A stretch of DNA of 60,867 nucleotides, counting the filler. It is 6 parts of 6 records of this genome, joined end to end, with 100 filler letters (N's around TTAATTAATTAA, not from the genome) between each part and the next. Parts side by side here need not be neighbours in the genome. Positions count along the whole stretch, not along the records: positions 14,817 to 38,578 come from SRR31156797_16523; 5 more parts are not named here. One strand, given 5' to 3'. Below, piece after piece: positions 12,952 through 39,527 of the stretch; position 1 is the first letter of the stretch; every line of letters starts with the position of its first letter. The notes beneath the pieces were generated by a model. It was given only the letters and a program-made list of their open reading frames with translations. It was not told the origin of the DNA and did no database searches. The position numbers and the translations under genes are program-made.

Positions 12952-12985
12952 AAAAAAACGCCCAGCCTTATAAAGGCTGAGCGTT
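12952..12985 (-). terminator. Terminator after the acyltransferase gene
   Basis: AACGCCCAGCCTT/AAGGCTGAGCGTT stem with an A7 run. Confidence 0.65.
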
Positions 12986-13020
12986 CCAGTGACAAACAAC
13001 ATAATTATAAACTCAAAATA

Positions 13021-18460: not shown

Positions 18461-20239
18461 TTATTTTTCCCCTGAATCACAAAAGTTTTCAAATTGCATC
18501 TGATACAGGCGTTTATACAGAGGGCATGATTCGAGTAAGTTGTCGTGTTTACCCTGAGCCACAATCCGGCCCTTTTCCATGACCACTATAACATCTGCGG
18601 ACATAATCGTCGATAATCTGTGTGCGATGACAATCGAAGTCCTATCCTCTATCAAATTATCCAGTGCTTTCTGGACAACTCTTTCGGATTCGGTATCCAG
18701 TGCGCTTGTGGCTTCATCCAAAATGAGAAGACTCGGGTTTTTCATTATGGCGCGAGCAATGGTCAGGCGCTGTTTTTGTCCACCAGATATTTTGACGCCG
18801 CCTTCGCCGACTACAGTGTCGTAGCCTTCGGGCATTTTCATGATGAATTCATGAGCGAACGCACCTTGTGCTGCTTGAGTGACTGTTTTTGTGTCGTATT
18901 CATCCTGCGCATAAGCGATGTTTTCTGTTACGGAAGCATTGAACAGAAATGTGTCCTGTGAGACCAGACCGAGATTGAGACGCAGGCTGTCCAAAGTGTA
19001 ATCTTGAAGTGATGTGCCATTGATTTTTATGTCGCCCTGTTGGGCCAGGTAAAATCGCGGAATCAGGTTGACCAGTGTGGTCTTGCCAGATCCGCTGGGA
19101 CCGACAATGGCCACACGCTGTCCTGCCTTGATAGAGAGAGAAAGGTCCTGGATCGCAGGTTCCGATGTATTCGGATAGGTAAAACTGACATTGTTGAAAG
19201 TAAGCTCTTTGAGTGTGCCACTAAAGGCGATGGTGCCATCCTTTTCAGCCAGAATATCTGGTGAATCAAGAATGTCGAAAACACGTTCTGCGCCTGCAAG
19301 CCCTCCTTGAATCTGATGGTTGGAGGCGTTAAGTTTTTTGATGGGGTCATACAATTGAACGAGACAGACGAGGAACGCCGTGAGGTCGCCCGGAGACATC
19401 AAACCGTTGATGACGCGGCTGCCGCCGACCCAAAGAACGGTTCCACCAGCCACGGCAGCAATAAGATCCATGATTCTTGAAGATCCTTCACTGTAGAGGA
19501 TACGGCGAATAATCATTCTTGTCAGGTTGTTGTTTTCCTTGTTGAATTTTGATTCTTCACGGAGTTCATTGGCAAAGGCCTTGATAACTTTGATGCCTGA
19601 AAAGCTTTCTTCAAGAACAACGTTGATGCCTGAAAGTTCGGCTTGCATTTTGCGGCCGTATTTGCGGATTTTCTGACCGAAAAAGACAAACGGGTAGATC
19701 GCTACAGGCATGACAATCAGGCTCCAGAAAGCCAGATATGCATCAAGATAGATGGTTGTGCCGATCAGACCTATCAGGGTGAAAACTTGTCTGACAAACA
19801 TGATTCCGCTGGGCAGACAGACGCGGACTGCAACAACATCGGCCACGATTCGGCTCATGAGCATGCCGATTTCACTTTCAGCAAAGTAGGGCATGGGAAG
19901 GCGGATTATTTTCTTGAAAAGGTCATGACGCAAGTCTCGCAATACAAGTATGCCTGTTGCGTTCATCACGTAAACCTGTCCCAATTGAAGCATTCCCTTG
20001 AGAATTATGAGACCAGCAAATCCATATATGCAGAGTTCTAAGGTGTTTATATCTTTGGCTATAAGTACTTCGTCCGTAATGAATTTGGTCAGCCAAGCCA
20101 GGGCAGGAGCGATTGGCGCGTACAAAAGCATGGCGATAATTGCAAGGACGACACGTCCTTTGTATGGACCGAAATAGCCGATGCTGCGTTTGAGCAGGTA
20201 TCGGTTACTCATTTTATGGAGTTTAACTTTTTGAGCCAA
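18461..20239 (-). CDS. msbA: MsbA-type ABC exporter (lipid A flippase)
   Basis: 6-TM domain plus NBD with GPSGSGKT, ISGGQKQR, DEATSALD. TTG start with a GAGGAG RBS. Confidence 0.8.
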   Translation of the reverse strand: MAQKVKLHKMSNRYLLKRSIGYFGPYKGRVVLAIIAMLLYAPIAPALAWLTKFITDEVLIAKDINTLELCIYGFAGLIILKGMLQLGQVYVMNATGILVLRDLRHDLFKKIIRLPMPYFAESEIGMLMSRIVADVVAVRVCLPSGIMFVRQVFTLIGLIGTTIYLDAYLAFWSLIVMPVAIYPFVFFGQKIRKYGRKMQAELSGINVVLEESFSGIKVIKAFANELREESKFNKENNNLTRMIIRRILYSEGSSRIMDLIAAVAGGTVLWVGGSRVINGLMSPGDLTAFLVCLVQLYDPIKKLNASNHQIQGGLAGAERVFDILDSPDILAEKDGTIAFSGTLKELTFNNVSFTYPNTSEPAIQDLSLSIKAGQRVAIVGPSGSGKTTLVNLIPRFYLAQQGDIKINGTSLQDYTLDSLRLNLGLVSQDTFLFNASVTENIAYAQDEYDTKTVTQAAQGAFAHEFIMKMPEGYDTVVGEGGVKISGGQKQRLTIARAIMKNPSLLILDEATSALDTESERVVQKALDNLIEDRTSIVIAHRLSTIMSADVIVVMEKGRIVAQGKHDNLLESCPLYKRLYQMQFENFCDSGEK

Positions 20240-21522: not shown

Positions 21523-21620
21523 GTGTGTCGAATCTTAAAAGTTTTTTGAACTGCTCGAATTATTCGAATTGCTTGTACAACTCATATTCCATGCTCAAAT
21601 ATTCCCAACTGGAGGACCTC

Positions 21621-24600
21621 ATGGCTGACCCCAAGACTCAAATGCTTCAAGTCTCTCTCCCCGGCGCAGGACAGACAACCACCTATCAGATGACCGCTGA
21701 TGTTCCCGTCAAATTTACTTTTGATATTTCCGAAGCCGTTTTTACCGGCAACAACGGTAATCTTACGATTGCCATTGAAAATGGTGGTACGGTTGTTCTC
21801 GAAAATTATCAGGCTCTCGTAGATGCGGGGTCCATGCCTATTTTTGAAATGCTGGATGGAGAACAAGTTGCCGGTGATGTGTATCTCTTCGCTTTTGCCG
21901 ACGGCGTTGATGGCGCTGATGCCGGGTTGGAGACCGCAGGTGATGCCAACGGTGGCGGGTCCGGTGCAGGTGAGTACTCTGATGATCCCGGTCAGATCGG
22001 TGATGGGGTTGATGCTTTGGGCGGACAGAGTGATGCATATGCCAGTCGCGCTTTGACAGCTGTTTCCGGGGCGGCGGGAGATAATACAAATCCCATAGCC
22101 AATGACGATTTTAATGAGATCACTGAAATAGGTGATGCCGATTTTAACGGGAGTGAGCACGTCACTTTCGTGTCTGAGGAAGAAGAACTTTACGATAGCG
22201 ACCTTGAAGGTGATTTTTTTAGTCTTGGTGAGGAAGGCAAAGGCTTTGTCGTCAATTATCAAACTGATGGTCCACAAATTCAAGAACCGATTGAAGGCAA
22301 TGTCATTGATAATGATTTCGATCCTGACGCCTCAGACTCTAATGATACATTGCTTATGCACTCCATCGATTACGATGGCGTTGATTCCACAGGTCAGAAC
22401 CCTGGCCCGGTCGAGATTCCGTCAACCGGGCAGACTGTTGAAGGGCTGTACGGGACTTTGGTTATTCAATCTGATGGTTCTTATATATATACATTAAATG
22501 AAGACTTGGCTGATAGCCTTGAAGAAGGCGAAGATTACGACGAGGTTTTCAATTATACTATCGAAGATCCTTCCGGTTCGGTGAGCAATCAGGCCAGTTT
22601 GACCATTACGGTTCATGGTTCTAACGATGCGCCGACGGCCGTGGCTGATACAAACGTGCAGGCTGTTGAGCATGGAGATTCTGACGGACCTTTCCCATAC
22701 ATTGATACTGAACAAACAGGACTTTCCGACGGAGAAGAAGAGTATCATCCCTATTCCGAAGGACCGTATAATGCTTCCGGCAACGTTTTGGAAAACGATT
22801 CGGACGTTGATGACAACGACATGGTCAATGAGCCCGGTGAAGAATCCGGTCTTTTCGTCATGGGTGTTTATTCAGAACATCCTTCGGATAACATCGACGA
22901 TCAGCTTGATTATGATGCCTCGCTCGTGAACGGTGGTTTAGAGGGAGCGGTTGAACCTTCACAGGCTTCATTCACCGTTCAAGGTCACTACGGTTCTTTG
23001 ACCATCAATAATGATGGTTCATATACGTATACATTGGATAATGATGGTGAGAATGCTGATCTTGAGGCATTGAATTATGATAATTCCGGTACGGATTCTT
23101 TTACATACGCGATTATGGATGACTCCGGTGCCCTGAGTTATGCCAACCTCACCTTTACAGTGAACGGTGCCAACGATGCTCCCGAGGCGTTTTCTGATGC
23201 GAATTCAATTCGTGAATTCGGGCATATCTTCGAAGATGTTGAATATATCGGTACGGTAACTGGTAATGTTATCACTGATGTGAATGCCGATGGCGATGTG
23301 GATTCTGATGCAGATGATACACAGATTTTTGTTGAAACCATTAGCCATGGTGACAATACTCAGGCTGTTTATGACTATGACGGTACCAATGAATATGTCG
23401 ATATTGACGGTGATTACGGTACACTGAGGGTCTGGGAAAACGGCGAGTATGAATATACTCTTGATAATGAAAATGGCGCTGTTAATGCCCTTGATGATGG
23501 CGGAACTCTTACTGAGACTTTTTCTTACGTTACCACGAATGATTGGCAGGATGGCGTTAGCAGCGACTCGGCTGATCTGACCATTACTATTAATGGTACC
23601 AACGACGCTCCGATCGCAGTGAACGATGTTAATACTGCCTCTGAAGCCGTTGATGATGCCGCTTTGGTCCCAGCTACCGGCAATGTACTTACAGACGCAG
23701 TGACCGGTGATTCTGATGTTGACACTGGTGACGTTCTGCATATCGCCGGAATCCAATACGGTTCCGAGTTCGTTAACTCCTTTGATGCAGAAGGTAATCT
23801 TGTCATTGTCGGTACCTACGGTACTTTGAAGATTGATGCTGACGGTAATTACACCTATGAGGCGGATCAAGATGCAGCCAATGAGTTGGCCGCTGGCAGT
23901 GACCCGGTTGACGATGTCTTTACGTACAGCGTGACCGATGGCGATGTCACGAGTACCGCTACATTGACCATATCTGTCTCAGGCGTAAACGATTCCGCAA
24001 CTATCTCTGTTGCTGAAGGTGTTATGAATGACGAAGGCGTGGTTATCGCTTCTGTCAACGAGACGGATGACAATGCAAATACTCTCGAAGATCTGCCTGA
24101 TGGCGCTCAGTATCAGTCCGGTAGTGATGTCGTTGAACCTGATGGTGGGAATTTGACCATCGGGGGGGCTCTTGAAGTGAGTGATCCTGATGTTCATGAA
24201 GTCAATCCTGATCCCTCGGTTCTGGGCAACACCAATCCTGATATTGAAGATACTTTCCAACCGCTGACTGACGCACCGGGCAGCAATGGTTACGGCACGT
24301 TTACCATTAATGCAGATGGCGACTGGACGTATACGGCCAGCAATGATCAGGCCGCGATCCAGCAGCTTGGCGACGGCGAAAGCTTGACGGACTCCGTAAC
24401 GGTTACTTCTCACGACGGGACGGCAACACAGGTCATTACCGTAACGATTAACGGCACCAACGATGCTCCGGTTATCACCAATGTCTCTGCTCCGGTGGAA
24501 GATTTTGAGGACGGCGCTGATGGTTGGTTGGTCAATGGTGGAGATGTCCCTGTTACTGAGACTGATGGACCGTTGACTGATTACCTTGGCCGCCTTGGTG

Positions 24601-27600
24601 GTAACGATACCCTGACCAAGACTTTTGCAGTTGCCGACGGCACTGACACCATGACCATAGAGTTTGATCTTTATGAAATTGACTCTTGGGATAACGAAAA
24701 CTTCATTATGTCTGTCAACGGTGATTCCGCTGAAATCAATTTGGGACACAACGATGCTTTGAACGGAACCATTTTGTCTTGGCGCGGAATTGACGGTGAG
24801 ATTACAGATGGTACATTCACCGGTCCCAATGGTGTGACTTTCACGGTTACACCGATGACTGGCGATGCTGAAAATCTGGAGCCTGGCGATACTTGGCAGT
24901 GGGGTACTGATCAGATTCACCATGTGACCATCACTATCCCGAACCCGGATGGTCAGGTAGATCTTGAATTTTCCGCTGATTTGGATAGCCATCTCAACGA
25001 CGAATCCTTTGGTATTGACAACTTGGCTGTCAGCTCAGTTGATGCTGATGGCAATCCTATCTTCACGGTTGTTGAAAACGTGACAGGTTCCGTTGCTGTT
25101 GCAGAACTGGCCTCCAGCGACATGGAAGGACAGGATGTGCATTACGTCATCAACAAGATCGAGATTTCGGATACCGAATATGTCGAGCTTGGTGCTGACG
25201 GCCAATATTACGATCAAGATGGTAACCCGGTTGATAGCGCCGATCTCATGTTCGCTATCGATGGGAACCAGGTTGTGACCGCAGACGGTGCGACCTTCGA
25301 TTACGAAGCAAACAATCAGTACACCATCTCCGTATCCCCAGTGGACTCGCAGGGTGGTGTTGGGCAGTCCGTTGATATTAATGTCCAGATTGGCAATGTG
25401 AACGAAGCTCCGAGCGGCGAGGACTTCACCATGACCGTCGGTCTTGACGGTGGTTCAGTCGACTTCCTCGGTGCAGACGGATCAGAAGGTGGTATTGGTG
25501 ACAACGCCGATCATGTTTCTGATCCAGAAGACGATGCTGATGCTCTTGACGTTATGATCACCGAGCTGCCCACGGGCGGCAAGTTGATGTACAACGGTCA
25601 GGAAGTGACTGAAGACGATTTGGCAAGCGATGCTGATGGCGACGGGATTATCGACGGCAACGGCACTCAGTTTGATCTGAATGGTTTGACCTATGTTCCT
25701 GACTCCGACGGCATTGACGGTGTGCTCCTTGGTTCTCGTCTTACAGGTGATGCAACTCTTGATAACTGGGGTGAGGCCGATGGTTTGAATCGGGTTATGG
25801 ACCTTGGTGATGGTGTCTCCGTAACCACCAGCGTGACCAGTGATGGAGTAGCTGCTGAACTCCAGCAGTTCCATGGACAGGCAAATCATATAGGATTTGG
25901 TATCGCTGATGCCACTGGTAACGGTGGTAATGACAAGGGCCTCAATGCTGGGCCAGATAGACCCGGTAGTGACGAACTGACCGTGAGTTTTAATGGCGCA
26001 ACCGTTTCATACGCAGAAATCGGCTTCGACGGTTTGGGTGGGCATTTTGATCCTGACGCAAATGGTTATCAGAATGCGACTGCAGAATGGACCGCGTACC
26101 TGAACGGTGAAGAAGTGAACTCCGGCTCTGTTAGCAGCGACGGAGACTTGTTCAATTCCATCACGGTCTCTGGTTTTGAATTCGATACAATAGTTTTTAG
26201 CACCGCTTCCGATGCAGATGGTTCTAACTGGGAACTTCGCTATATTGATGCAGAGTTCACCGATACTGATTCCTTTGATTACATCCCTGTTGATTCCGGT
26301 CAGCCTGGTAACGACGGCGCATTGGTTGATCCCGATGGAGCCTCCACAGTTACCATCAACATCCAGCCTGACGGCCCTGTGAATCAGGAAGTCGAAGCGG
26401 CAGATGATTTCTTGACCATTAATGAAGACGATACAACGGCGACCGGTCTGAACGTCGGCGACAATGATATCGATCTTGATAATACGCTTGGTGAACTTGA
26501 GTTCTCCCTCGATAACCCGGCCGATGCCCCCGAAGGTTTGACCTTCAATCCGGATGGTTCCTACACCTTTGATCCGTCTTTCTATCAGTCTCTGGCAGCA
26601 GGCGAAGTCTATGGTGACGGCCCCATTAAGGTCGATTACACGGTATTTGATGGAGAGACTCACTCTAAGGCCTCTCTTTACATTACCATTACCGGTTCTA
26701 ACGATACTCCGACTTTGGACCTGTCAGCCGATGCTGATGGTTTCAACTTTGCTGATACATATGTTGAAAATGCAGCTCCGATTTCCATTACGGGTGATGC
26801 GGATATCGCTGATGTGGACCATAACGCAATGGTTTCCAAGGCGACTGTCTCCTACACTCCGCTTGAGGATGCTGACGTAACTGCTCTTGATTTGAATCTG
26901 CCTACGGGTTGGGATGCTACAAGTTCTGTTGATCCTGTTACCGGAGAAATAACTTGGACGATCACTGGTCCCAACGGTGATGATATGACCATGGGTGATT
27001 TTGAGTCCGTCCTTGATGGCATTACCTTCGGCAATGCAGCTGATGAGTCTCCGCTTGATGGGGACAGAGAATTCACCATTACAGTCTACGACGATCAGGG
27101 TGAGGCCAGTAATTCCGCAGTTTCTACCATTACGGTAGAATCCGAGAATGATGCTCCGACTCTCGACCTCTCAGCCGGTACAGTGACCTTCGAAGGTCAT
27201 ACTGCCGGCTACCATAACATGATTGGTGTTTATGAGATGGTTGACGGTAAGCCCGTGAATCCTGAAATCATTATGGAAGATGTGCAGGATGCAAATGTTG
27301 GCGATGTTCTCACCACATTTGGTGACGGTCAGGACCTCCATTACTTCCTGGTTGATGTTGGATACGGTTCCACTCCTACCGGAACCCCTGAGTTTGTGTG
27401 GGATGCAGCCAACAATGAGTGGGATATCTCTTTTGATGGTGGCACAACGACTCAGAACGTTCACTTTGACGATGCAACGTTGAATCCGAATGACTCTGAA
27501 GCTACCTTTGGCGATAGTCTTAATAATAACAATGACATTGAAGTCGATGATCAGCAGAGTTCTGTTGATGACGACGATTTTGATGACGTCCTTGCCGATG

Positions 27601-30578
27601 AGAATCCTGGCGCGGCTGGCGCGGATCATGGCGCGACCTTTACTGAAGGTGACGCTCCGCTCTCGGTTACCGGTGCCGTGGACATCTCTGATGTTGATTC
27701 TGATACCATCACCAAGGTTGAAATTACCTATACACCAGAAGAGCATGATGCTCTGGATGTTGACCTCGGTTCCTTTGTTGATGAAGGGACTGTTACCAAT
27801 TCTGATGGCAGCGTGACCTGGACAATCTCCGGCGATGCTTCCAAGGCTGATTACGAAGAATTGCTGCAAAGTCTGACCTTCGAGAATGACTCAGAGACAT
27901 TACAAGACGGTACGCGTGAAATAACCATCCGTGTGAATGACGGCGAAGACTGGAGTAATCCGGCTCAATCCACCATTACGGTGGTTGGCGTAGATGATCC
28001 GACCAGCATTACCGATCACACAGATGGAGCCGTTCATGAAGATGCTCCTGCTGATTTGGATGGAAATGGTTTCCTGATTGAGTCCGGCAGTGTCACTTTC
28101 TCTGACGCTGACGGCGACGGTGCCATGGACACCACACACATTGATGCAGTGGATGCAAACGGTAACGTATTGTCGACTGCGAATGTCGGAACATTGACCA
28201 TTAATGATGCCGGAGTATGGGAGTACAAGATTGATAACTCCCTGCCTGAAGTTCAGAATCAGGATAGTGGTGAGAGTTTCGACGAGTACTTCCGTGTCTA
28301 CACTGAGGATGGTAACGACTTCACGGATATCAAGGTCACCGTTAATGGTGAAGACGACAATAGAGCCCCTAACGCTGTAAACGATTTGGCTGGTGGAGCA
28401 GACACTTCAGCAACTGAAGGCGGAATCAGTACCTCTACCAACCCGTCTGATTACATGCTTATCGTGGATACATCTGGGTCCTTGAGCCATACAGCAATGG
28501 CTCAGACGCAGACAGCTCTTACTAATATGCTTCATACTTTGCAGGGGAGTTTGGCTGATGGTGCTACATCCAAGGTGAGCATCATCAATTTCTGGGATAG
28601 GACTGATATCGACACCTTCACCCTTACTGGTGGAGACTCAACTGCTTACGATGCTGCTGTTGGCTTTATTGGAACGTTTGCCCCTGGCGGTGGTACTGAC
28701 TATACGGCAGCATTCCGGGCCGCTACGGCTTTACTTGGTCCAGATCCTGATCCGACTCAAGTTATCTTCATGTCTGATGGCGAACCTACGGAAGGTGGAA
28801 ACGGTTGGAAGAATCTGATTACTCCCATACAGGATAATCCAGATGTCAATCTCATTGCCGTTGGTGTCAATATGCCTGCTCAGTACAAAGGGAATATGGA
28901 CCTTATCGATGAAGGAAATGACGCTTCCATGTTGGATGGCAACGGTTTAAATGGCCTGCTTCAGGACGTTTTGTCCCAGACGACCATTCCGGCCACGACC
29001 GCTGAAGGCAACGTGTTGACCAATGACTCCGATCCCGATGGCGATGTTTTGAGTGTCATTTCCATCACTAATGATACAGAGACAGTAGACCTCGTAGACA
29101 GCACTAATGACGGTGTAGACAATCCGTCTGCAACCATTGTTGGTACTTACGGTACATTGACCATTAATGGTGATGGTTCTTACGAGTACACACCGGATCA
29201 GGCTGCCGCAAATGCTTTGAATCAAGGCGATTCCGAAACCGAGTCCTTCACCTATACCATTTCCGATGGTAACGGCGGAGAGGCCTCGGCAACGGTCAGC
29301 TTCGAAGTTAACGGTGCCAATGACGCGCCTGTGGCGATTAATGACAGTTACCATGGTCTTGTTGTCGAAACGCATACGGATGTGGTCACCGATTGGAATG
29401 CCGCAGACCACAATGCGACATACTCGGCGAATGGCATGACCTTTACGGCCAAGTCTCAGGGAGATTCGTCTGTCTGGCTGGACTCGCGAGATGGTGGTGA
29501 TGACCTTGGTGTTAATAATGGGCCGTCTGACAATAGCAACAAGATTGACAGCTCTGGACAACGTGATTCGCTTTTGGTCGAATTCGCCGAAGGCAAGGAT
29601 TCAGTGACTATCGAGTTAGGGAGTTGGGGCAATAATGATGATGCTCGGATCTACATCAATGGTGTTAATTGGGGGCGTTACTCCAACAATTCCGATACGT
29701 TTACCTTGACAGCTGCAGGTGACAATGGTGGCGTGCCGATTGAATCAATTGAGATCATGGCTGTGAAGCATGGTTCTCATAGCTACTTCACCCTTGATAG
29801 CATTGAAGCATCGACTTATTCCGTTAGTGGAGAAGCGGGAGCTTCCGGTGATGTCCTGGCTAACGACTTTGATGTCGATACTGGCGACACCCTGAGCGTC
29901 ATTGATGTCAACGGTGCCGATGTGAGTGCAACTGGTCAGACCGTGATTCATGGGGACTACGGTGATTTGACTATCGAAGCCGATGGTTCTTATGACTACG
30001 CTCTTCATGATGGTTGGCAGGACCTTGACCACACGGTTACCGAGACCTTCGAGTACACGGTGTCTGACAGTCATGGTGCGGTTGATGTGGCGAATCTTGA
30101 GATTCCGATTCACGTCAACGCCAATGTTGTCACCGATGTGACGGCCGACACCGCGACGGGTGAATTCGTCATGAACGGAACGACTGGTGAAGACCTCATT
30201 TACATCGCGGACGACGCCACTATGGTGAACCTGACAGATGGCGGCGACGATACCATTATCGTTGATCCTGATTACATCGGTACAGCTGGTGGCGACATTA
30301 CGGTTTCCGGTTTCGGTGACGGCGACGAATTGGTCCTGAATGATATGGGTGACATGTTCATCTCCATCGACCACTCTGGGAATGATACAGTTTTGACCAT
30401 CAATGAAGGGGCTGGCGATGTGAATCCCGGTGATGATTATACCATCACTTTGACGGACTACTCACTCCACGGCGTCGATCAAATGGATTTGCCGACTGGT
30501 CACATGGATATCTCCAGCGACCACGAGTCCTTGAATTCCTTGATTCAGACCATCATTGATTCACCTGACAAGAACTAA
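21621..30578 (+). CDS. Giant (~2985 aa) T1SS-type surface adhesin (LapA/BapA-like) with VCBS/Ig/cadherin-like repeats and a vWA domain
   Basis: GGAGG RBS before ATG 21621. Repeated YGTLxIxxDGSYxY...TITVNGxNDAP units, MIDAS motif DTSGS near 28470, Gly/Asp RTX-like C-terminus, very acidic, no Sec signal. Confidence 0.9.
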
Positions 30579-30674: not shown

Positions 30675-30708
30675 AAAAAGGCCCGGAAGGAAAACCTTCC
30701 GGGCCTTT
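30675..30708 (-). terminator. Terminator of the RpiR operon
   Basis: AAAAAGGCCCGGAAGG-AAAA-CCTTCCGGGCCTTT. Confidence 0.85.
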
Positions 30709-30763
30709 AAGCATTGATTGATCGGGATATCCGTGTCCTAGGAAGGAAACGGTCGATTCTTTG

Positions 30764-31912
30764 TTAAACTCTGCTTTTGTAGAAAGAGCAGAAGCGATTT
30801 ATGCCTTCCCTGATTTGCTCGGTGTCAGCGCAGAAGGAGAAGCGGATGAATTTGTCGGAATCCTGGCCGAAGGTCAGGCCGGGCGCGGTGGCAACGCCTG
30901 TTTCCTTGAGCAGTTCCTTTGCGAATGTGTAGGAATCCATTCCTGCCTTGGACACGTTGGCCATGAGGTAGAAAGCCCCCTTGGGACGGGAGAACTCAAA
31001 GCCTTCTGCGGACAACTTGTCGAGGACGAGGTCCCGACGTTCGCGGTAAGCTTCGACCATTGTTCCGATGCAATCCTGAGGGCCGTTCAATGCGGCTTCT
31101 GCTGCCTTCTGAGAGACTGCGGAAGCGCAAGAAACGTAAGGCTCAAGGATTTTGTTCATCTGCGGAGCAACTTCGGACGGGGCGCTGTAGTAACCTACAC
31201 GCCAGCCTGTCATGGCATATGCCTTGGACACTCCATAGATGGAAATTACATTGCCATTGGGGTCGATATTCAGCGGGGAGTGGTGCTCTCCGTCAAACAC
31301 GATTTTGTCGTAGACTTCATCAGAAATGATGTAGATGTCGTGCTTTTTGGCAAATTCAACAAGCTTTTCAACGGTTTCCTTGGAGTACACACCGCCGGTA
31401 GGATTTGACGGAGTATTGATGAGCATGACCCGAGTGCGGGGCGTGATCAGTGGTTCCAAATCTTCGATGAGCGGCTCGAATCCGTTTTCTTCGCGCAGCG
31501 GGTAGAATACCGGGGTGCGCTCCATGGCGATGGTCTGCATGTAGTAGTTCGGCCAGCCCGGATCGGACAGCAGCACTTCGTCACCGGGATTGGTGACGGC
31601 CATCATGGCTTGAGCCAGAGCGAAAACGGAGCCGGGGGCAATGCCGATCTGGTCAATGCCAATTTCAGCACCATCTCTGGATATTTTATTGAGAGCAGCT
31701 TCGCGCAGTGAGAGAAGGCCATTGTTGGCGGTGTACTTGGTGAATCCGTCGTGGATCGCTTTGCAGGCGGCCTCTTTGATGTGATCCGGGGTCTGGAAGC
31801 CGGGCTCGCCGAGTTCCATGTGGATGACGTCTTCCATTCCCATGGCCAGATCCATGATGACACGGATTCCGGAACGGGGCATCTTGTTCAGGGATTCGCA
31901 GAGAGTCTTCAT
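30764..31912 (-). CDS. PLP-dependent class I/II aminotransferase-fold enzyme
   Basis: GEPGF, NTPSNPTG, SDEVY, SKAYAMTGWRVG. Confidence 0.93.
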   Translation of the reverse strand: MKTLCESLNKMPRSGIRVIMDLAMGMEDVIHMELGEPGFQTPDHIKEAACKAIHDGFTKYTANNGLLSLREAALNKISRDGAEIGIDQIGIAPGSVFALAQAMMAVTNPGDEVLLSDPGWPNYYMQTIAMERTPVFYPLREENGFEPLIEDLEPLITPRTRVMLINTPSNPTGGVYSKETVEKLVEFAKKHDIYIISDEVYDKIVFDGEHHSPLNIDPNGNVISIYGVSKAYAMTGWRVGYYSAPSEVAPQMNKILEPYVSCASAVSQKAAEAALNGPQDCIGTMVEAYRERRDLVLDKLSAEGFEFSRPKGAFYLMANVSKAGMDSYTFAKELLKETGVATAPGLTFGQDSDKFIRFSFCADTEQIREGINRFCSFYKSRV

Positions 31913-31936
31913 AATTTTTTCCTGTGATACTTATGG

Positions 31937-32962
31937 TTATCGTTGGTCTCGGCCAGCTGCACCATCGGCAAGGGCCTGTATTTCTTCTTTTGTTGCGCGG
32001 AGGAAGTCGCCGGGAATGGAGTGCTTTATAGCACCGGCCGCAACCGCGAAATCAATGGTTTCCTGAGAGTCGCCAGTCTTGTCGAGGGCATACAGAAAGC
32101 CTGTGGTGAAGGCATCTCCACCACCGATGCGGTCGACGATGTTTTTCATTTCAAAGACAGGGGAAGTCCACATTTCATCAGGTGTTGCAAGTATGGCGAC
32201 AGTGGACTGGTGATCAGCGGATTGTGTTCGGCGTACAGTGATGGCGATTTTTTTGATGTTAGGCCATTGTTCGAACACTTCATCGGCCATCGGGCGATAT
32301 GCAGACGGGTTGTCGTAGATATCGTTTTCGGCAACCCGAGCAGACAGGCCGAGGCAGGAATCGAAGTGGCCTTCGTTACCTACCAGCACATCCACATATT
32401 CCATCATGCGTCGGTATACGTCTACATGATTGAAGCCGTATTGCCAGAGTGCTGCACGAAGATTCAGGTCACATGAAACCGTCAGCCCCATTTCTTTGGC
32501 TGTTTTCATAGCTTCAAGGGTACAACGCATGGCTGTCTCTGAAATAGCGGGTGTGATGCCGGTGATGTGGAACCAGTCCCGATCAGCCAATAATTTACGC
32601 CAGTCGAAAGTTTTTGGTTCGGCTTTGGCAATGCAGGAGTCGGCTCGATCATAGACGACTTTGATAGGGCGCTGGTTGGCACCAGTTTCAACAAAGTACA
32701 ATCCGAGACGACCCTCGTGGTGGGCAATTTTTGAAACATCCACGCCGTGTTTCCGCAATTCGTCACGCACTGCGTTTCCGAGGTCATTTGTCGGAAGTGC
32801 GGTGATGAAGGAAACATCTTCATCCAGTCGTCCAAGACCAACTGCGACATTGGCCTCGGCTCCGGCCATGGTCACTTCAAGTGACGGCGTTTGAAAGAGT
32901 CTTTCATAGCCAGGGGCTTTGAGTCGCATCATGATTTCACCTAACATGGCATACCGTGTCAT
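31937..32962 (-). CDS. kdgK: PfkB-family sugar kinase, 2-keto-3-deoxygluconate kinase-like
   Basis: GEIMMRL, AGAEANVA, HITGITPAIS, DLNLRAALW, DRIGGGDAF, KHSIPGD. Confidence 0.85.
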   Translation of the reverse strand: MTRYAMLGEIMMRLKAPGYERLFQTPSLEVTMAGAEANVAVGLGRLDEDVSFITALPTNDLGNAVRDELRKHGVDVSKIAHHEGRLGLYFVETGANQRPIKVVYDRADSCIAKAEPKTFDWRKLLADRDWFHITGITPAISETAMRCTLEAMKTAKEMGLTVSCDLNLRAALWQYGFNHVDVYRRMMEYVDVLVGNEGHFDSCLGLSARVAENDIYDNPSAYRPMADEVFEQWPNIKKIAITVRRTQSADHQSTVAILATPDEMWTSPVFEMKNIVDRIGGGDAFTTGFLYALDKTGDSQETIDFAVAAGAIKHSIPGDFLRATKEEIQALADGAAGRDQR

Positions 32963-32971
32963 GGTTTCCTC

Positions 32972-33892
32972 CTACTGCTTTTCAATGAGTTGGATGGAAA
33001 TGCCGCCAGCGGTTTCAGCCATCCACGCAGAATTTGTTTTGGTATCGATAGCTTCGACCTTTTGGCCGTTGCTTTCAAGCCATGCGACTGCTCGTTGAAT
33101 GTTGTTGCACGCAATGCGGAGTGTGCCGGGGGCATCTCCTGTAGCAGAAAGCGGGGTGAAGCCGGGAACTGTTGACGGCGCAAATGCCATGGCAAGTGTG
33201 TCAAGCATTGTTGAGCCCGCATTGTCTGCGCCTGTGCCAATTTCTGCGCTGAGCAGTTCAAAACCATGAAGCAGAGCCATGGCTTCCTTGGCATTGCGGG
33301 TGATCTGTTCGAATTCACCAGCCTGAATGTACTTTTGTTTGGCGATCCATGTTCCACCTACAGCCAAAACGGAATTGCTTTTTGCATAGCTGGTGATGTT
33401 GTCGGGGCTGATGCCACCCAATGGTAGGAACTTAACACGTTCTTTGAACGGTGCTGCCATTGATGCCAATCCCTTCATGCCGCCTCTGGATTCAGCGGGG
33501 AAGAATTTGACGGCAGGTAAACCAGCTTCGAGTGCCAGTTCAATACCCGTGGGGCTGTCAATGCCGGGAATGATGAGGAAGTCGTTGTCAACACAATGGT
33601 ATACAACCCTGGAGTTGAAGCCTGGGGTAACTATATAACATGCACCGGCTTCTTTAACTTCTTCTACCTGCTCCGGGGTCAAAACTGTTCCAGCGCCAAC
33701 GAGCATGTCGGGATAGGCTTCCAGTACGGCTTTAATTGCATCGCAAGCGACATCTGTGCGGAGTGTGATTTCCATGGCGGCAATGCCACCATCTCTAAGG
33801 GCCTTGGCAACAGGCACAGCATCTTCAAGTCGTTCGATTTCGACGACCGGGAAGATGCCGGCGATTTGAATTGCTTTTAATATTTTTTGCAT
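32972..33892 (-). CDS. eda: KDPG/KHG aldolase with ~95-aa C-terminal extension
   Basis: EITLRT, GAGTVL, VTPG, VKFFPAE (Schiff-base Lys), PLGGI, GGTW. Confidence 0.9.
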   Translation of the reverse strand: MQKILKAIQIAGIFPVVEIERLEDAVPVAKALRDGGIAAMEITLRTDVACDAIKAVLEAYPDMLVGAGTVLTPEQVEEVKEAGACYIVTPGFNSRVVYHCVDNDFLIIPGIDSPTGIELALEAGLPAVKFFPAESRGGMKGLASMAAPFKERVKFLPLGGISPDNITSYAKSNSVLAVGGTWIAKQKYIQAGEFEQITRNAKEAMALLHGFELLSAEIGTGADNAGSTMLDTLAMAFAPSTVPGFTPLSATGDAPGTLRIACNNIQRAVAWLESNGQKVEAIDTKTNSAWMAETAGGISIQLIEKQ

Positions 33893-33915
33893 TGTATTTC
33901 CTTGTAGATGCTGGA

Positions 33916-34650
33916 TTAGTCGTGGGTAATTTGGTGCATGAACTGACGCGTGCGTTCATTCTGCGGATTATCAATGAGCTGGCTAGGTGCGCCTTCTTCG
34001 ACAATAACTCCGCCATCCATGAAGATCATTCTGTCAGCAGCTTTGCGGGCAAATCCCATTTCATGGGTGACGACGAGCATAGTCATGCCCGAGTTGCTGA
34101 GCTCATCCATGACATCAAGAATTCCACCGGTGAGTTCTGGGTCCAACGCAGATGTTGGTTCGTCGAACAGCATGACATGAGGATTCATGGCCAAGCCGCG
34201 AGCTATGGCTGCACGTTGTTGCTGGCCACCAGAGAGGTTGTCCGGGTAGACATCCACCTTGTCCACGATGCCGACTTTTTTCAGCAATGACTGTCCGATT
34301 TCACGGGCTTCATCCAATTCCTTGTTCAGGACCTTGGTCAAAGGCATAGTGATGTTTTCTATAATGGTCAGGTGCGGAAAAAGGTTGAAGCTTTGGAATA
34401 CCATGCCGACTCTGCGACGCAGGTCAAGCAGGTCTGTCTCTGGAGCGTGAACCGATGTCCCGTCGACTATAATTTCGCCTGCCTGAATTTTTTCAAGACC
34501 GTTAAGGCAACGGAGCAGGGTTGATTTGCCTGAGCCACTGGGACCGGCAAAGATGACGGTTTCTCCAGGTTCAACATCAAAGCCGACACCTCGGAGAACC
34601 TCAAGGGGACCAAAGCTTTTGTGAAGATTGTTAACTGATACTATAGGCAT
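33916..34650 (-). CDS. Polar amino acid ABC transporter ATP-binding protein
   Basis: GPSGSGKS, LSGGQQQR, DEPTSALDPEL. Start reassigned to MPIVSV after AAGGA. Confidence 0.93.
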   Translation of the reverse strand: MPIVSVNNLHKSFGPLEVLRGVGFDVEPGETVIFAGPSGSGKSTLLRCLNGLEKIQAGEIIVDGTSVHAPETDLLDLRRRVGMVFQSFNLFPHLTIIENITMPLTKVLNKELDEAREIGQSLLKKVGIVDKVDVYPDNLSGGQQQRAAIARGLAMNPHVMLFDEPTSALDPELTGGILDVMDELSNSGMTMLVVTHEMGFARKAADRMIFMDGGVIVEEGAPSQLIDNPQNERTRQFMHQITHD

Positions 34651-34666
34651 AATGTATTCCTTGAAA

Positions 34667-35326
34667 CTAAGTTGTCTTTTGTTTGAGCCGCTTTTCCAGA
34701 TTCGCTGAAAGGTGGAGAATCGGGTAGCAGAGCGCAAAGTAGAACACAGACAGAACCGCGAATGTAATCAGTGGTTCCATGTTGGACTGCATCTGAACTC
34801 GCGCTACGCGGGTCAACTCGGTTAAGGCGATGACGGAAACAACGGATGTGTCCTTGATGTGCAGGACAATTTGCCCGGAAAGAGGCGGTAGTGTCAGTTT
34901 AAAGGCCTGAGGAATGATGACATACCTCATGCGTTGGTATGTAGTCAGTGCCAGTACTTTTGCTGCTTCATGTTGAACCGTAGGGATTGACTGCAAGGCA
35001 CTGCGGATGATTTCAGAAACATATGCTCCTGAATGCATGGATAAAGCCAAGATGCCAGTTGTCAGTGCGGAAAGTCGCAGTCCAAAAAACGGTAGTACAT
35101 AGAACAGAAAGAACAAAATCATTAGGAAAGGCAGTCCCCGCATGAAGTCAACATAAATGCGAAGGATCTGTGACAGTACCGGTATTTTCAGGAATCTAAT
35201 CAGGCCAGTGATAATGCCAAAGAGTATGGCTACGACGAAGCCTGCGACGGCCAGAAGAAGGGTCGCTGGCAGCCCTCGTTCCGCAAGGAGAACGAAAAGA
35301 TTACCAGTCAATGAAAGTATATCCAT
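34667..35326 (-). CDS. Polar amino acid ABC permease
   Basis: RGLPFL, AYVSEIIRSALQSI...QHEAA, KDTS. Confidence 0.92.
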   Translation of the reverse strand: MDILSLTGNLFVLLAERGLPATLLLAVAGFVVAILFGIITGLIRFLKIPVLSQILRIYVDFMRGLPFLMILFFLFYVLPFFGLRLSALTTGILALSMHSGAYVSEIIRSALQSIPTVQHEAAKVLALTTYQRMRYVIIPQAFKLTLPPLSGQIVLHIKDTSVVSVIALTELTRVARVQMQSNMEPLITFAVLSVFYFALCYPILHLSANLEKRLKQKTT

Positions 35327-35330
35327 TATC

Positions 35331-35990
35331 TTACCATCTCCTCATGCGTTTTTCGAGGAACGAGGTCCCGTAGATAAGAGTCAGGATGATCACGAGGTAA
35401 AATGCCATTGCCGGAAGAAACGCTTCCATTGGGCGAAAGGTCACAGCTTGGGTAACGGCGGCAGCTTTGGTCAGGTCAACAACACCCATAACTGAAACAA
35501 GGGCGGAGTCTTTGACCAGATAAGATGCTTGTCCGATGAGCGGAGGAAAGATGTTTCGAAATGCCTGTGGCAAAATAACATATCGCATTTTTTGCGAATA
35601 CGACATTGCCAGACAATCAGCAGCTTCATATTGAGTTGTATGGATTGACTCGATGCCCGCTCGAATAATTTCGGCAGCATAGGCTCCAGAGTTGAGCATC
35701 AGAGCCATTACACCCACCAGAAAAGCTGGCAGTATAATACCGAATTCAGGCAGACCAAAAAAGAGAAAATACACTTGTACCAAAAGCGGTGTTGAGCGGA
35801 TGAACTCCACGTAAGCGGTTGCTGCTCGTTTCAGCCATGGCTTGTGTGAAAGGCGGGCCAATGCCACCAACACACCCCACACCACGGCGAGCACGATGCT
35901 GATAAGAGAAATGAGGATGGTATTTTGCAAGCCTGTCATAATATCAGGCATGTAATTGACCATCATCTGGTAGTTGAAATCGTAATTCAT
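35331..35990 (-). CDS. Polar amino acid ABC permease
   Basis: RSTPLLVQ, AYAAEIIRAGIESI...QYEAA, KDSAL. Confidence 0.92.
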   Translation of the reverse strand: MNYDFNYQMMVNYMPDIMTGLQNTILISLISIVLAVVWGVLVALARLSHKPWLKRAATAYVEFIRSTPLLVQVYFLFFGLPEFGIILPAFLVGVMALMLNSGAYAAEIIRAGIESIHTTQYEAADCLAMSYSQKMRYVILPQAFRNIFPPLIGQASYLVKDSALVSVMGVVDLTKAAAVTQAVTFRPMEAFLPAMAFYLVIILTLIYGTSFLEKRMRRW

Positions 35991-36013
35991 TATTTAGACC
36001 GTTTTAACAGGTG

Positions 36014-36044
36014 AAAAAACGGGGCAGGGATTTCCCCTGCCCCG
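36014..36044 (-). terminator. Intra-operonic stem-loop after the SBP gene
   Basis: CGGGGCAGGG/CCCTGCCCCG stem plus U6 on the minus strand. Such structures commonly bias expression toward the SBP. Confidence 0.65.
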
Positions 36045-36064
36045 ATGACATGTGTCATTATCGT

Positions 36065-36871
36065 CTACGGATGCATGTTCCAGTCGGCCTGCCAAGGCTT
36101 GCCGAGCCACTTCTCGTAGATTTCACCATATTCGCCAGTGCGCATGATGGTGGCGAAGAACAGGTCCAGCCAGTTCTTCATGCGGTAGGATTCGAAGTCC
36201 GGGCGAACTGCGTATGCGTAAGCATCAGGCTGGATGTTGCCTTCGAGCATAGCCAGACCCTTGACCTTTTTGGGGAAGCTCATGACGATGAGTTCATCAT
36301 TCAGAGCTGCATCGACACGGCCGTCTTTCAGTGCCTTGAGCTGGTCGCCATCCAGTTCATAGGTGACGAGTTCAGCGTTAGGAAGTTTCTTTTTAGCAAC
36401 GGTGGCACCGATAGCGCCAGCGATAGCACAGATTTTCACGCCGGGTTTGTTCAGGTCTTCCCAGGACTTGTAGCCTTTGCCGTCGCGGGCAACAGCGAAA
36501 GTTCCGGTCATGAGCCAAGGGTGAGCGAAAACGACTTTGGTAGCGCGTTCCATGGTAGCGGACATGCGAGCACCGATCAGATCGATACGCTGGGACAGCA
36601 GAGCAGGAATCAGGCCGCCCCATGCCATGTCTGCAACTTCAACTTCAACGCCCATGTACTCGCCGAGTTTGTTCATCAGATCGATTTCAAAACCTTCGGG
36701 CTCGCCTTTGTCGTTACGATAGGCAAAAGGTGGGGCAGCCAGAGTGGTGCCGATGACAATTTTGCCGTCGCTTTTGATTTTGTCCAGAAGATCGGTCTGG
36801 GCGGAAGCGACAGAACCGAGGCCGAAAGTCATGATGAGTGCCAAGGCAGACAGTAACCAGATTTTACGCAT
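36065..36871 (-). CDS. Amino acid ABC substrate-binding protein (family 3)
   Basis: Signal peptide MRKIWLL...ASA after AGGAGG; PPF, GFEIDL, MSATMER, IYEKWLG. Confidence 0.92.
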   Translation of the reverse strand: MRKIWLLSALALIMTFGLGSVASAQTDLLDKIKSDGKIVIGTTLAAPPFAYRNDKGEPEGFEIDLMNKLGEYMGVEVEVADMAWGGLIPALLSQRIDLIGARMSATMERATKVVFAHPWLMTGTFAVARDGKGYKSWEDLNKPGVKICAIAGAIGATVAKKKLPNAELVTYELDGDQLKALKDGRVDAALNDELIVMSFPKKVKGLAMLEGNIQPDAYAYAVRPDFESYRMKNWLDLFFATIMRTGEYGEIYEKWLGKPWQADWNMHP

Positions 36872-36955
36872 AGAATTCCTCCTGCTTTTGATGATTGAAC
36901 CGCAATTATTAAACCACACCTATTTTTTCATACGAGTCCGGTCGGACCGGCATGA

Positions 36956-37796
36956 TTAAATGATTTTTCCGAGAAGTGCGCGTTTTACCTTGTCCAGCCG
37001 GTCGAAGCCTTCTTCGTTCACGAGACGCATTGCAACAGCAACGAAGAGCGTGTCGAGTAGGGCAAGTTGCATGAGTCTGCCAGCTTTTGGGGCGAGACGA
37101 AGGGCTATTTCCCGAGAGGAAACGCACAGAGGGATATCACAATGATTGGCGACTTCAGAGTTCTTTTTGCCCAGAATACCGATGACCTTAGCGCCGGTTT
37201 TTTTTTGCAATTTCGGCGGATTCGATGATGTCTTTGGTGGCACCGGAGTGGGAGATGACGACCGCGACGGCTTTTTCGTCGAGCTGTGCTGCGCTCATGA
37301 CCTGCATGTGAGAGTCGTTGTAAGCGACACACGGGACGCCGAGACGGAAAAATTTATGATGTGCATCCAGCGCGATGACACCTGAGCCGCCCATGCCGTA
37401 GAATTCCCAACGGGTGGCGGCAACCATCGTGTCCACTGCATCTTCGAGCATCCGTCGGTCCATGCCTCGTTCGGTGCTACTTACAGCTTCAACCACAGAG
37501 CGCATGACATTAGTAAAGATGGAATTGACCGAGTCAGTTTCGGTGATGTCTTCAAGGACTGTCTTGTCGATAGGGTGTGCACTGGCCAGACGAAGCTTGA
37601 GCTCCATGAATCCTTTTAGACCCAGTTGTTTGCAAAAACGGACAACCGTTGGGTCACTTGTCTCGGCCAGAGTGGCTGCCTCGGAGATGGAGCCATTCAT
37701 AACGATGTCAGGTGATCTTAAAACAAGGTCTGCTACCTTTTGTTCAGATTTTCGCATTGTAGGCATTTCTGAACGAATTGTTTCAAAAATATCCAT
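36956..37796 (-). pseudogene. RpiR/MurR/HexR-family regulator (HTH + SIS), frameshifted at an A9 tract
   Basis: SDPTVVRFCKQLGLKGF and ISHSGATKD are in one frame; KKTGAKVIGI...LALLDTLFVAV continues in another. Removing one base from 37198-37206 gives a 279-aa protein. Confidence 0.85.
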
Positions 37797-37843
37797 GTAT
37801 TCCTCTTGATAAAGTCACTGTTTGACACTTTGGTCCGTCGTTC

Positions 37844-37879
37844 TTGTAAAATTACAACATTATTGCGGCATCGTGTCAA
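37844..37879 (-). promoter_or_regulatory. Sigma-70 promoter with an overlapping palindromic operator
   Basis: Minus strand TTGACA-N17-TGTAAT; the -10 lies inside TTGTAATTTTACAA. Confidence 0.6.
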
Positions 37880-38521
37880 TATGACTTTCTCTTTTTGGTT
37901 AATACGTATATAACGTTGAAATATATGCTTTATTTATATTTTAAAAAAGTTAGCAATACTACATGTCCTTCCGTGGAAGGGTGGTTTGTATTGCCTCGTA
38001 TCTTGTTTTTGATTTTTTTGTAGTTTTTCTTCATCGTGAATTTCGTGGAGTGCTTTTATTTTTCTTTACGTATTAAAACGATAGTTCGTTTTAAATGCTA
38101 GCAGATAGCTATTCTAATGATTCAACTGAGCTTAATTGGGATACCAATGTTTGGAGGGGATGCAGAAAGTGACGCTATTGGGAGAGCGGTCTGTTGGCGT
38201 ATGAAAGGTCCATTTTAAGCGGATTTTGGAGAAGTTTGAAAAGATGATCTATTCAGGGGATGTTGGGTGTGATTATCTGTTTTTTTTCTTGTAAACAGTA
38301 AATTTAAGTATGATTTCAATGAAGATAATAGCGGCAGGGATAGAAATGCCTCCACAAATAAAACCTTTCCAAAAAACAGGAAGTGTTGCCCACCAGTTCA
38401 TATCTTTATCCTGCGTAAGTTTGACTTAATTGCTTTTGTAAATTTTGAGTCACTGTTTTGTCTTTGTCAGAGCGCCTCGATAATCGCTCAAAATTATTTA
38501 TAAACTTTGCTTAAAAGTAAA

Positions 38522-38547
38522 GGGCTTATGTCACAAGACATAAGCCC
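38522..38547 (-). terminator. Hairpin downstream of the tRNA
   Basis: GGGCTTATGTC-ACAA-GACATAAGCCC. Confidence 0.7.
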
Positions 38548-38555
38548 ATAATTTC

Positions 38556-38578
38556 TGGTACCTGGGGCGGGATTTGAA
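38556..38578 (-). tRNA. 3' end of a tRNA, probably tRNA-Leu (cut by contig end)
   Basis: Minus strand TTCAAATCCCGCCCCAGGTACCA = T-loop, T-stem, acceptor strand, A, CCA. Confidence 0.75.
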
Positions 38579-38678
38579 NNNNNNNNNNNNNNNNNNNNNN
38601 NNNNNNNNNNNNNNNNNNNNNNTTAATTAATTAANNNNNNNNNNNNNNNNNNNNNNNNNNNNNNNNNNNNNNNNNNNN
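38579..38678. other. Artificial contig spacer
   Basis: N44-TTAATTAATTAA-N44. Confidence 0.98.
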
Positions 38679-39527
38679 GCCCACGATGGCCATGGCAAGA
38701 TAGGTGATGGAGTGATGCAGGGTGAAGGACTCGAACCCGACCCCACGGTACACGTATGCGTGCAGTGCCCCGGCCACACCGGCAAAAAAACCCGCCAATC
38801 CGAAGGCATACACTTTTGTTAGGCCGGGATGCATTCCCATGGCATCGGCCGCCCGATCGTTGTCCCGCACGGCACTCAAACAGCGCCCGTATCGGGTTCT
38901 AAGGAGGTTTCGCACCATAAGACCTGAAAGAATCACGACCACAAGGAGCACATAATACCAAAAGAGGTAGTGATCTTTTCTGCCCAGTTTGCCGGTGAAC
39001 CAGAAGACCCTGCTGATGGGGATGGTCTGGCCCTGGTTAAAAAATTCCAGGAAATTGATGGTCCATGAAAAGATCATCTGAAAGCTTAAGGTGGCGATGG
39101 CCAGGTAAAGGTGCTTCAAGCGCATGGCGGGCAGGCCGACGATGGCTCCGAAAATAGCTCCCATCAACCCGCTGAGAACAATCATCAGCGGCCAGGCATG
39201 GGTGATAAGAACGTGGCTGTCCCCCAGGGTTCTGGAAAAAGAGGCGAGGGTGTACGCACCGATACCCACAAACGCCGCATGACCGATGGATATCAAACCG
39301 GCAAACCCGGTTACGATATTAAGTCCGATGATCGCAACCATGGCAATGAGGATATTGTCCAATACGAGCATGTATTTATTGCTTAAGGTAAAAAGCATGG
39401 GCCAGGCAAAAAGCAGCAGCAGAAACAGGGTAAAGATGGTTCGGTCCAAATGGGTAAAAAAGATTCTCTGCTCATCCTGGTACGTCGTGAAATAGTTGCC
39501 TGTGGCTAACCAACGATTGGTTGACAT
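38679..39527 (-). CDS. Branched-chain amino acid-type ABC permease (LivM-like), 3' truncated
   Basis: GLNIVTGFAGLISIGHAAFVGIGAY, YLAIATL, AVRDNDRAADAMG. Confidence 0.92.

Follow-up and report, generated by a model that had tools for sequence, protein, structure and literature searches.

Here, we describe an eight-gene operon in a stretch of draft-genome DNA of 60,867 nucleotides (hereafter the window), in which a putative amino-acid importer and an aminotransferase-fold enzyme are combined with an aldolase and a kinase similar to 2-keto-3-deoxygluconate (KDG) kinases. The window consists of draft contigs placed end to end with N/TTAATTAATTAA linkers at 14761, 38623, 44280, 49482 and 54915, and genes across a TTAATTAATTAA/N linker are not necessarily genomic neighbours. 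The operon contig spans ~14.8 kb to ~38.58 kb of the window, and its closest protein relatives come from Pseudodesulfovibrio. Open reading frame (ORF) calls place the eight genes head to tail on the minus strand, from 37796 to 30764, with intergenic gaps of 4-84 nt and in the order regulator (rpiR), solute-binding protein (SBP), permease 1, permease 2, ATPase, aldolase, PfkB kinase and aminotransferase.

Protein families were assigned with Pfam and NCBIfam. The first gene (36956..37796) encodes an RpiR/MurR-family regulator with HTH_6 and SIS domains and is frameshifted, Pfam recognising both pieces. It is followed by a family-3 periplasmic SBP of the polar amino-acid type with a signal peptide (36065..36871; PF00497, 108 bits) and by two ATP-binding cassette (ABC) permeases of the HEQRo type with three transmembrane segments (35331..35990 and 34667..35326; PF00528; TIGR01726 with 115 and 98 bits, respectively, at a cut-off of 42). 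The ABC ATPase (33916..34650; PF00005) is GlnQ/HisP-like, with GlnQ as its best NCBIfam model at 308 bits, below the cut-off of 379. Downstream lie an aldolase for 2-keto-3-deoxy-6-phosphogluconate (KDPG) or 2-keto-4-hydroxyglutarate (KHG), which occupies residues 1-209 of a protein with a C-terminal extension of ~100 aa (32972..33892; PF01081, TIGR01182), a PfkB-family kinase resembling KDG kinase (31937..32962; PF00294, match to 2afb) and a pyridoxal phosphate (PLP) enzyme of the class I/II aminotransferase fold that belongs to a distinct subfamily (30764..31912; PF00155, 228 bits). The operon ends in an intrinsic terminator (30677..30708, minus strand) with a 14-bp stem, 9 GC pairs and a T-run, ~55 nt past the aminotransferase stop codon. 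A second, terminator-like hairpin with an 11-bp stem and a T-run lies between the SBP gene and permease 1 (36044..36020, minus strand) and may act as an attenuator or mRNA stabiliser. A preliminary description of this DNA had listed eight co-directional, tightly spaced genes of the same families, which the ORF calls and the family assignments bear out. Its single promoter and end terminator also stand, the internal hairpin being the feature that its count of one terminator lacked, and the end coordinate that it gave, 37879, is the first base of the -35 box.

The promoter consists of TTGACA (-35, 37879-37874), a spacer of 17 nt and TGTAAT (-10, 37856-37851), and a perfect palindrome, TTGTAATTTTACAA, overlaps the -10 box at 37857-37844. 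Read together as one element on the minus strand (37844..37879), promoter and palindrome are unchanged in all six orthologous loci, including a transferred copy in genome G035 that has unrelated flanks. The complete genome G001 contains one perfect copy of TTGTAATTTTACAA only, and this copy is at the operon promoter. The palindrome is a candidate operator of the RpiR regulator and resembles TTGT..ACAA, which we take to be the arrangement of HexR half-sites. The rpiR gene of the window is broken by a +1 frameshift in a run of nine A at 37198-37206. Its G001 ortholog is intact with 279 aa, which implies eight A at these positions, and contigs of a 99.2%-identical strain, recovered from four runs of one sample, have one base fewer at 37198; the shift thus represents either an assembly error or a strain-specific lesion. 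If the frameshift is real, the strain may express the operon constitutively. In the four runs of that sample, the near-identical operon copy forms a separate contig of 7902 bases corresponding to 30678-38578 of the window. Several differing loose continuations were seen there at the terminator end (30699-30707), so that the sample may well contain more than a single strain or flanking context.

Orthologs of the aminotransferase with 93-100% identity were found in 5 of 41 related genomes, i.e., in 4 of 25 genomes of the genus and in G035, which belongs to another family. Each of these five carriers holds all eight genes in the same order, and the co-occurrence on which the preliminary description had staked its proposal is borne out by this synteny. 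DNA similarity between G001 and G035 begins at the start of rpiR and runs through to the stop codon of the aminotransferase gene (6254-13284 of locus L091), and alignment of the upstream regions lengthens the shared stretch to the -35 box. Between these two genomes the cluster aminotransferase is 93% identical, as opposed to 62% for a housekeeping aminotransferase paralog that serves as a one-gene baseline, which argues for recent horizontal transfer of the operon. The operon appears to have moved into another family as one unit bounded by the -35 box and the final stop codon. These comparisons support the view that the eight genes form one conserved, co-transferred accessory unit, with an arrangement that goes beyond chance. 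The cluster is rare: of the 401 genomes in a sample of the phylum, three had the aminotransferase and one the SBP, and the count for the class of genome G394 was 2 of 95.

A tRNA gene lies 580-760 bp upstream of the operon in two genomes, tRNA-Leu(taa) in G001 (L091, 5407-5493) and tRNA-Lys(ctt) in G035 (L094, 5463-5538). The spacer between tRNA gene and operon is AT-rich (38% GC), and no integrase was seen. The contig in the window stops at ~38580, inside the 3' end of a tRNA (38522-38580).

With a family-3 SBP, two HEQRo-type permeases and a HisP/GlnQ-like ATPase, the transport genes have the composition of a PAAT-type importer. The closest solved structure to the SBP is AncCDT-1 (5t0w), from among the Lys/Arg-type binders. 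Arg109 and Asp192 of the SBP align with the conserved Arg and Asp of Escherichia coli GlnH, HisJ and ArgT, residues that we take to hold the alpha-carboxylate and the alpha-ammonium group, respectively, and retention of this pair agrees with the amino-acid-type import proposed earlier. In the same alignment, the SBP is without the side-chain contacts of the Lys/Arg/His/Gln binders. Where ArgT has D11, Y14, F52 and S70, the SBP has Thr, Ala, Trp and Arg102, respectively, and Arg102 recurs in no less than 90% of the 22 family sequences aligned, the window contributing one of them. The SBP scored below the cut-off of every named amino-acid ABC equivalog of NCBIfam (Gln, cystine, ectoine, His, Arg, Lys/Arg/Orn), its best scores being those on the LAO (124 against 256), cystine (115 against 312) and EhuB (82 against 191) models. 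The orthologous group is narrow and comprises roughly 35 proteins with 46-91% identity, after which identity falls to 36%. The features of the SBP fit a ligand that is an alpha-amino acid with an unusual side chain.

The aldolase is a member of the Eda family (PF01081, 213 bits) and passes the eda model TIGR01182 with 223 bits at a cut-off of 156, in line with the KDPG aldolase first named. PF01081 matches occur in 9 of the 41 relatives, and the cluster copy is the sole match in each of the five carriers. In three of the other four genomes (G007, G021, G025) the match lies beside IclR-like and KdgK-like genes; in G011 a partial match adjoins an IclR-like gene only. The genus is thus no stranger to sugar-acid catabolism, and the earlier remark that such a route is unexpected in a sulfate reducer of this kind was overstated. 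The kinase has as its closest solved chain the Thermotoga maritima protein 2afb, deposited as a KDG kinase (E 1.3e-77), as befits the KdgK-type kinase of the preliminary description, and matches the kinase half of NF041633, a model of aldolase/kinase fusion proteins, with 364 bits. Enzymes that could supply KDG by other means were sought in the five carrier genomes. UxuA, the altronate/galactarate-dehydratase family and KduI gave no match in any of them, and neither Edd, for which each carrier has one IlvD-like match, nor an enolase-superfamily dehydratase was found above cut-off. Among the families searched, the absence of a uronate or gluconate dehydratase asserted for the operon thus extends, above cut-off, to the carrier genomes.

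The C-terminal extension of the aldolase (window 32972-33277, residues ~205-306) lies outside the PF01081 family and has neither a Pfam match nor a meaningful sequence match in the PDB. Its predicted order of secondary structure is beta-alpha-beta-beta-alpha-beta-beta. A lead from the Atlas pointed to VOC (0.92), and a Foldseek search with the extension model gave no match at E <= 0.001 and weak rows that included many VOC proteins. Since these structural matches are weak, the fold of the model is possibly VOC-like and this assignment stays a lead. Six homologs of the extension were found among 5.8 billion proteins, all of them on aldolases of this cluster type. One belongs to Desulfospira joergensenii, which has an aldolase with the same extension (P0127) and an aminotransferase 71% identical to that of the operon (P0006). 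A 72%-identical copy of the extension (P0124) is filed under the gregarine Porospora cf. gigantea and in all likelihood stems from bacterial DNA that entered the eukaryote assembly.

The aminotransferase has Pfam matches to PF00155, PF01053 and PF00266 only, and its closest solved structures are the Pyrococcus horikoshii enzymes 1gd9 and 1dju (~40% identity), of the aspartate/aromatic aminotransferase (AspAT/ArAT) type. It reached no equivalog cut-off; on the AspAT models of NCBIfam it scored 342 against 550, 269 against 617 and 262 against 624 bits. The enzyme is an extra paralog (G001 has 13 class I/II matches), and a housekeeping AspAT-like paralog scores 402 bits, above the 342 bits of the cluster enzyme, yet still below cut-off. 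An ordinary AspAT, the identity that would have spoken against the preliminary description, is accordingly matched in the canonical class I look of the enzyme but not in its score. A GntC-type PLP cyclodehydratase was also considered and rejected: the enzyme scores 290 bits on NF041364 (cut-off 415) and the housekeeping paralog 289, so the resemblance is generic.

In the collection of 5.8 billion proteins, relatives of the cluster aminotransferase are graded from 96% to ~50% identity, with Desulfospira at 71% and Anaerolineae, Brevibacillus and Cytobacillus at ~50%. We compared 80 metagenome loci of the subfamily (aminotransferases 42-62% identical, 0.72 Mb of DNA) with 80 control loci around generic aminotransferases (35-42% identical, 1.27 Mb). 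The controls came from a contig scan with the cluster aminotransferase, all matches of which were generic relatives of ~40% identity. A tree was calculated from the metagenome loci except L174, whose match was short (79 loci), 27 of the 80 controls (every third), six genome loci and 16 database proteins, and a branch with 99% support divides the subfamily from the generic aminotransferases. KdgK-like genes were present in 8 and Eda-like genes in 4 of the 80 subfamily loci, as compared to none of either in the 80 controls, and in the subfamily tree the members linked to KdgK or Eda are scattered over six or more separate branches. The association of the aminotransferase with KdgK/Eda is real and covers part of the subfamily.

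The linked loci differ in their further content. Genome G394, with a 62%-identical aminotransferase (AT), has the series MFS-Eda-KdgK-KdgK-AT beside genes for IclR, a family-5 ABC transporter, flavin reductase, DUF917 and aldehyde:ferredoxin oxidoreductase. L148 shows the series KdgK-Eda-amidohydrolase_2-AT-Zn dehydrogenase, in which stop codons overlap with start codons and a dehydratase is absent; L138 has DHDPS-AT-HpcH-Eda-PfkB-DUF917; and in L100, L101 and L110 the aminotransferase adjoins a PfkB kinase gene. The neighbourhood of this aminotransferase subfamily and KdgK/Eda is thus repeated in lineages far apart, where the transporters are different. A set of genes for DUF917 (S-Me-THD-like), flavin reductase, FMN reductase, SDR, family-5 ABC, hydantoinase and aldehyde:ferredoxin oxidoreductase recurs around L098 (G394), L100, L110 and L138, and these richer neighbourhoods may represent a separate undescribed anaerobic pathway.

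The operon is of the KDG-funnel type of catabolic operon. We propose, with a probability of about one half, that in Pseudodesulfovibrio it serves as a complete catabolic unit, mobile by horizontal transfer, that would convert a sugar-like amino acid to pyruvate and triose phosphate. This reading is plausible because the genes form a co-transferred unit, the aldolase is the sole one in the carriers, no KDG-forming dehydratase was found there, the aminotransferase subfamily is linked to KdgK/Eda, and the SBP has the Arg/Asp pair. Briefly, the PAAT-type ABC importer would take in an alpha-amino acid with a hydroxylated, sugar-like (polyol) side chain, candidates being an amino-aldonic acid of the glucosaminate or mannosaminate type or a 3-deoxy analogue. 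The aminotransferase-fold PLP enzyme would then strip the 2-amino group to yield a 2-keto-3-deoxy sugar acid, i.e., KDG or 2-keto-3-deoxygalactonate (KDGal). The KdgK-like kinase would phosphorylate C6, a step that could equally precede the PLP step, as in the dga route of Salmonella, and the Eda aldolase would split the product into pyruvate and glyceraldehyde-3-phosphate. RpiR would occupy the TTGTAATTTTACAA operator across the -10 box and probably be released by a phosphorylated intermediate. Substrate class, chemistry, step order, repression and effector are what we infer from gene content and from the comparisons above.

The PLP step could take two forms. Transamination would fit the canonical look of the enzyme, but requires a 2-amino-2,3-dideoxy acid as substrate. 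Alpha,beta-elimination from a 2-amino-2-deoxy acid fits known and ecologically plausible substrates such as glucosaminate, but would be unusual for the family and for a D centre. Transamination of 2-amino-2-deoxy-gluconate to 2-ketogluconate was considered as well and set aside; it would need a reductase and Edd, both of which are outside the operon, and Edd is below cut-off in the carriers.

Several observations weigh against catabolism of a sugar-like amino acid by this operon. The canonical class I residues Lys230, Arg357, Asn170, Asp198 and Tyr201 are all present in the PLP enzyme, which looks L-specific, and elimination from D-configured glucosaminate would be unusual for an enzyme that resembles a canonical L-specific aminotransferase. 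A literature search returned no natural pool of 2-amino-2,3-dideoxy-hexonate, no 3-deoxy-glucosaminate route and no 'KDG aminotransferase'. It likewise returned nothing relevant on a KDPG aldolase of Pseudodesulfovibrio or on GapMind or fitness data for a glucosaminate ABC transporter, supplementary files being outside the search. In Pseudomonas, ABC systems of the amino-acid type have reportedly been reannotated for glucosamine uptake. The best score of the kinase on the NCBIfam KDG/KDGal kinase models is 212 bits at a cut-off of 440, and the intact G001 regulator, with 207 bits on the HexR model NF008451 (cut-off 296), falls outside HexR. In 29 of the 35 subfamily loci whose flanks measure 8 kb or more, neither a KdgK-like nor an Eda-like gene was present, and the 64%-identical ortholog in G441 has amidohydrolase and PrpD-type genes in place of adjacent KdgK/Eda genes, which indicates that the wider subfamily is functionally mixed. 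Finally, the ong pathway for oxidised chitin has an OngB deacetylase and an OngD RidA protein in the available part of its description (PMC9537276), and the operon is without both.

A different division of labour, in which one regulator governs two unrelated functions, an ordinary polar amino acid (such as Asp, Glu or Ala) being taken up and transaminated and KDG that arrives by another route being salvaged independently, would account for the similarity of the aminotransferase to AspAT/ArAT structures (~40% identity, every canonical residue kept), for ABC components that are nearest to Gln, cystine, ectoine and Lys/Arg/Orn systems, and for the 29 of 35 long-flank loci without KdgK or Eda. We consider such a mixed operon unlikely. 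The eight genes were inherited and moved together behind one conserved promoter and operator, the enrichment of KdgK/Eda-like genes beside the subfamily has no counterpart in the 80 control loci, and the genome already has a better AspAT-like paralog (402 against 342 bits). A KDG salvage would furthermore have neither a KDG transporter among the operon genes nor a KDG-forming enzyme found in the carriers, and the SBP is without the side-chain contacts for Lys/Arg/His/Gln.

It is quite improbable that the substrate is 4-hydroxyglutamate or a related hydroxy-dicarboxylic amino acid. In that case the aminotransferase would yield 4-hydroxy-2-oxoglutarate, which Eda would split as a KHG aldolase into glyoxylate and pyruvate. 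The kinase would be left to a side reaction and thus without a role of its own, though it accompanies the aldolase in G394, L138 and L148 and is nearest to KDG kinase and to the kinase half of the aldolase/kinase fusions. The operon is also without a glyoxylate-handling gene, and, judging from its family, the RpiR/SIS regulator points to a sugar-phosphate effector. On the other hand, members of the Eda family are annotated as bifunctional KHG/KDPG aldolases, 4-hydroxyglutamate is transaminated by AspAT-type enzymes, and the extra conserved Arg102 in the pocket region of the SBP could hold a second carboxylate.

Uptake of a glycated amino acid or opine-like conjugate by a SocA/NocT-like SBP, with the PfkB protein as fructosamine kinase, is very improbable: the SBP does have weak matches to deoxyfructosyl-amino-acid and nopaline binders (5l9o, 4.5e-11; 4p0i, 5.5e-15), other subfamily loci carry family-5 SBPs of the peptide/opine type, and fructoselysine kinases are PfkB kinases, but the kinase scores 44 bits on the fructoselysine-6-kinase model (cut-off 247) as opposed to 364 and 212 on the KDG-type models, the operon has no deglycase, amadoriase or opine oxidase, and Eda would be without a role. 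Each of these three explanations leaves at least one conserved gene unexplained.

If the operon does degrade a sugar-like amino acid, the few routes known to lead from amino-sugar acids to the Entner-Doudoroff intermediate KDG or KDPG would gain an enzyme family and a type of transporter new to them, and amino-sugar acids would be tied to the sulfate reduction of marine sediments. On the more tentative view that the substrate stems from oxidised chitin or chitosan, sulfate reducers that are strict anaerobes could respire what the oxidative breakdown of chitin releases, by means of a 7-kb, tRNA-adjacent unit that moves between families. The proposal also offers a testable function for the aminotransferase subfamily found beside KdgK/Eda in Desulfobacterota (G394) and on unclassified metagenome contigs. 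As a compact, self-regulated module of importer, three enzymes, repressor and operator, the operon is easy to express and assay. Should the substrate prove to be an ordinary amino acid, the finding shrinks to an unusual operon fusion.

Convergent with the operon lies an ORF of 3017 aa (21525-30578, plus strand) with bacterial cadherin-like, Big_9 and VWA domains, and probably encodes a giant adhesin. The C-terminal part of the ORF has 70-84% identity to its counterparts in the four operon-bearing relatives of the genus and is missing beside the G035 copy. The window further contains an ABC exporter gene at 18461..20239 and an ORF at 38631..39527 that extends into masked bases.

Among known systems, the classical KDG module of hexuronate catabolism (KdgR/IclR-KdgK-Eda) shares with the operon its kinase and aldolase end. 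It differs in its regulator, IclR instead of RpiR, and in its entry, which is by enzymes of the UxuA, altronate-dehydratase or KduI type where the operon has an importer and an aminotransferase. Class Ib aminotransferases (1gd9/1dju of P. horikoshii, 1bjw of Thermus thermophilus) resemble the operon enzyme in fold and in all catalytic residues (E ~1e-71), whereas the latter forms a separate clade, is an accessory, operon-embedded paralog and stays below the AspAT cut-off.

The dga system of Salmonella presumably relies on a SelA-like enzyme, DgaE, and on a sigma-54 activator, which we take to be its regulator, instead of an RpiR protein. Its uptake is by a phosphotransferase system (PTS) of the mannose family, where the operon has an ABC importer, a PfkB kinase and no PTS gene. 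The PLP enzyme of the operon belongs to the PF00155 class I/II enzymes and is not of the DgaE type; the operon contains no gene for a DgaE-type lyase, and all that the two systems have in common is the family of the aldolase, DgaF in Salmonella. The likeness lies in the chemistry: according to the available part of the published description, an enzyme of the aminotransferase superfamily deaminates D-glucosaminate-6-phosphate to KDPG, i.e., a fold-type I PLP enzyme makes KDPG from an amino-sugar acid, and an Eda-type aldolase yields pyruvate and glyceraldehyde-3-phosphate (PMC9529869).

The preliminary description missed a second published route, the ong pathway of Pseudoalteromonas prydzensis for oxidised chitin, in which, as far as the available part of the report goes, OngC converts free GlcN1A to KDG, KdgK phosphorylates KDG to KDG-6-phosphate, and pyruvate and glyceraldehyde-3-phosphate are formed (PMC9537276). 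The kinase step is shared with the operon, and the kinase family is the only ong family among the eight operon proteins. In this account OngC, by contrast, has fold type III and is a PLP-dependent relative of the D-serine deaminases, and transport is by an SSS carrier and TonB receptors (PMC9537276), whereas the operon host is a strict anaerobe with an ABC importer. It is a tentative and somewhat doubtful, if attractive, extension of these comparisons that the class I/II aminotransferase-fold enzyme of the operon could represent a further, independently evolved and ABC-fed route from an amino-sugar acid to KDG or KDPG, with a glucosaminate-like substrate, perhaps from oxidised chitin or chitosan, or a 3-deoxy analogue.

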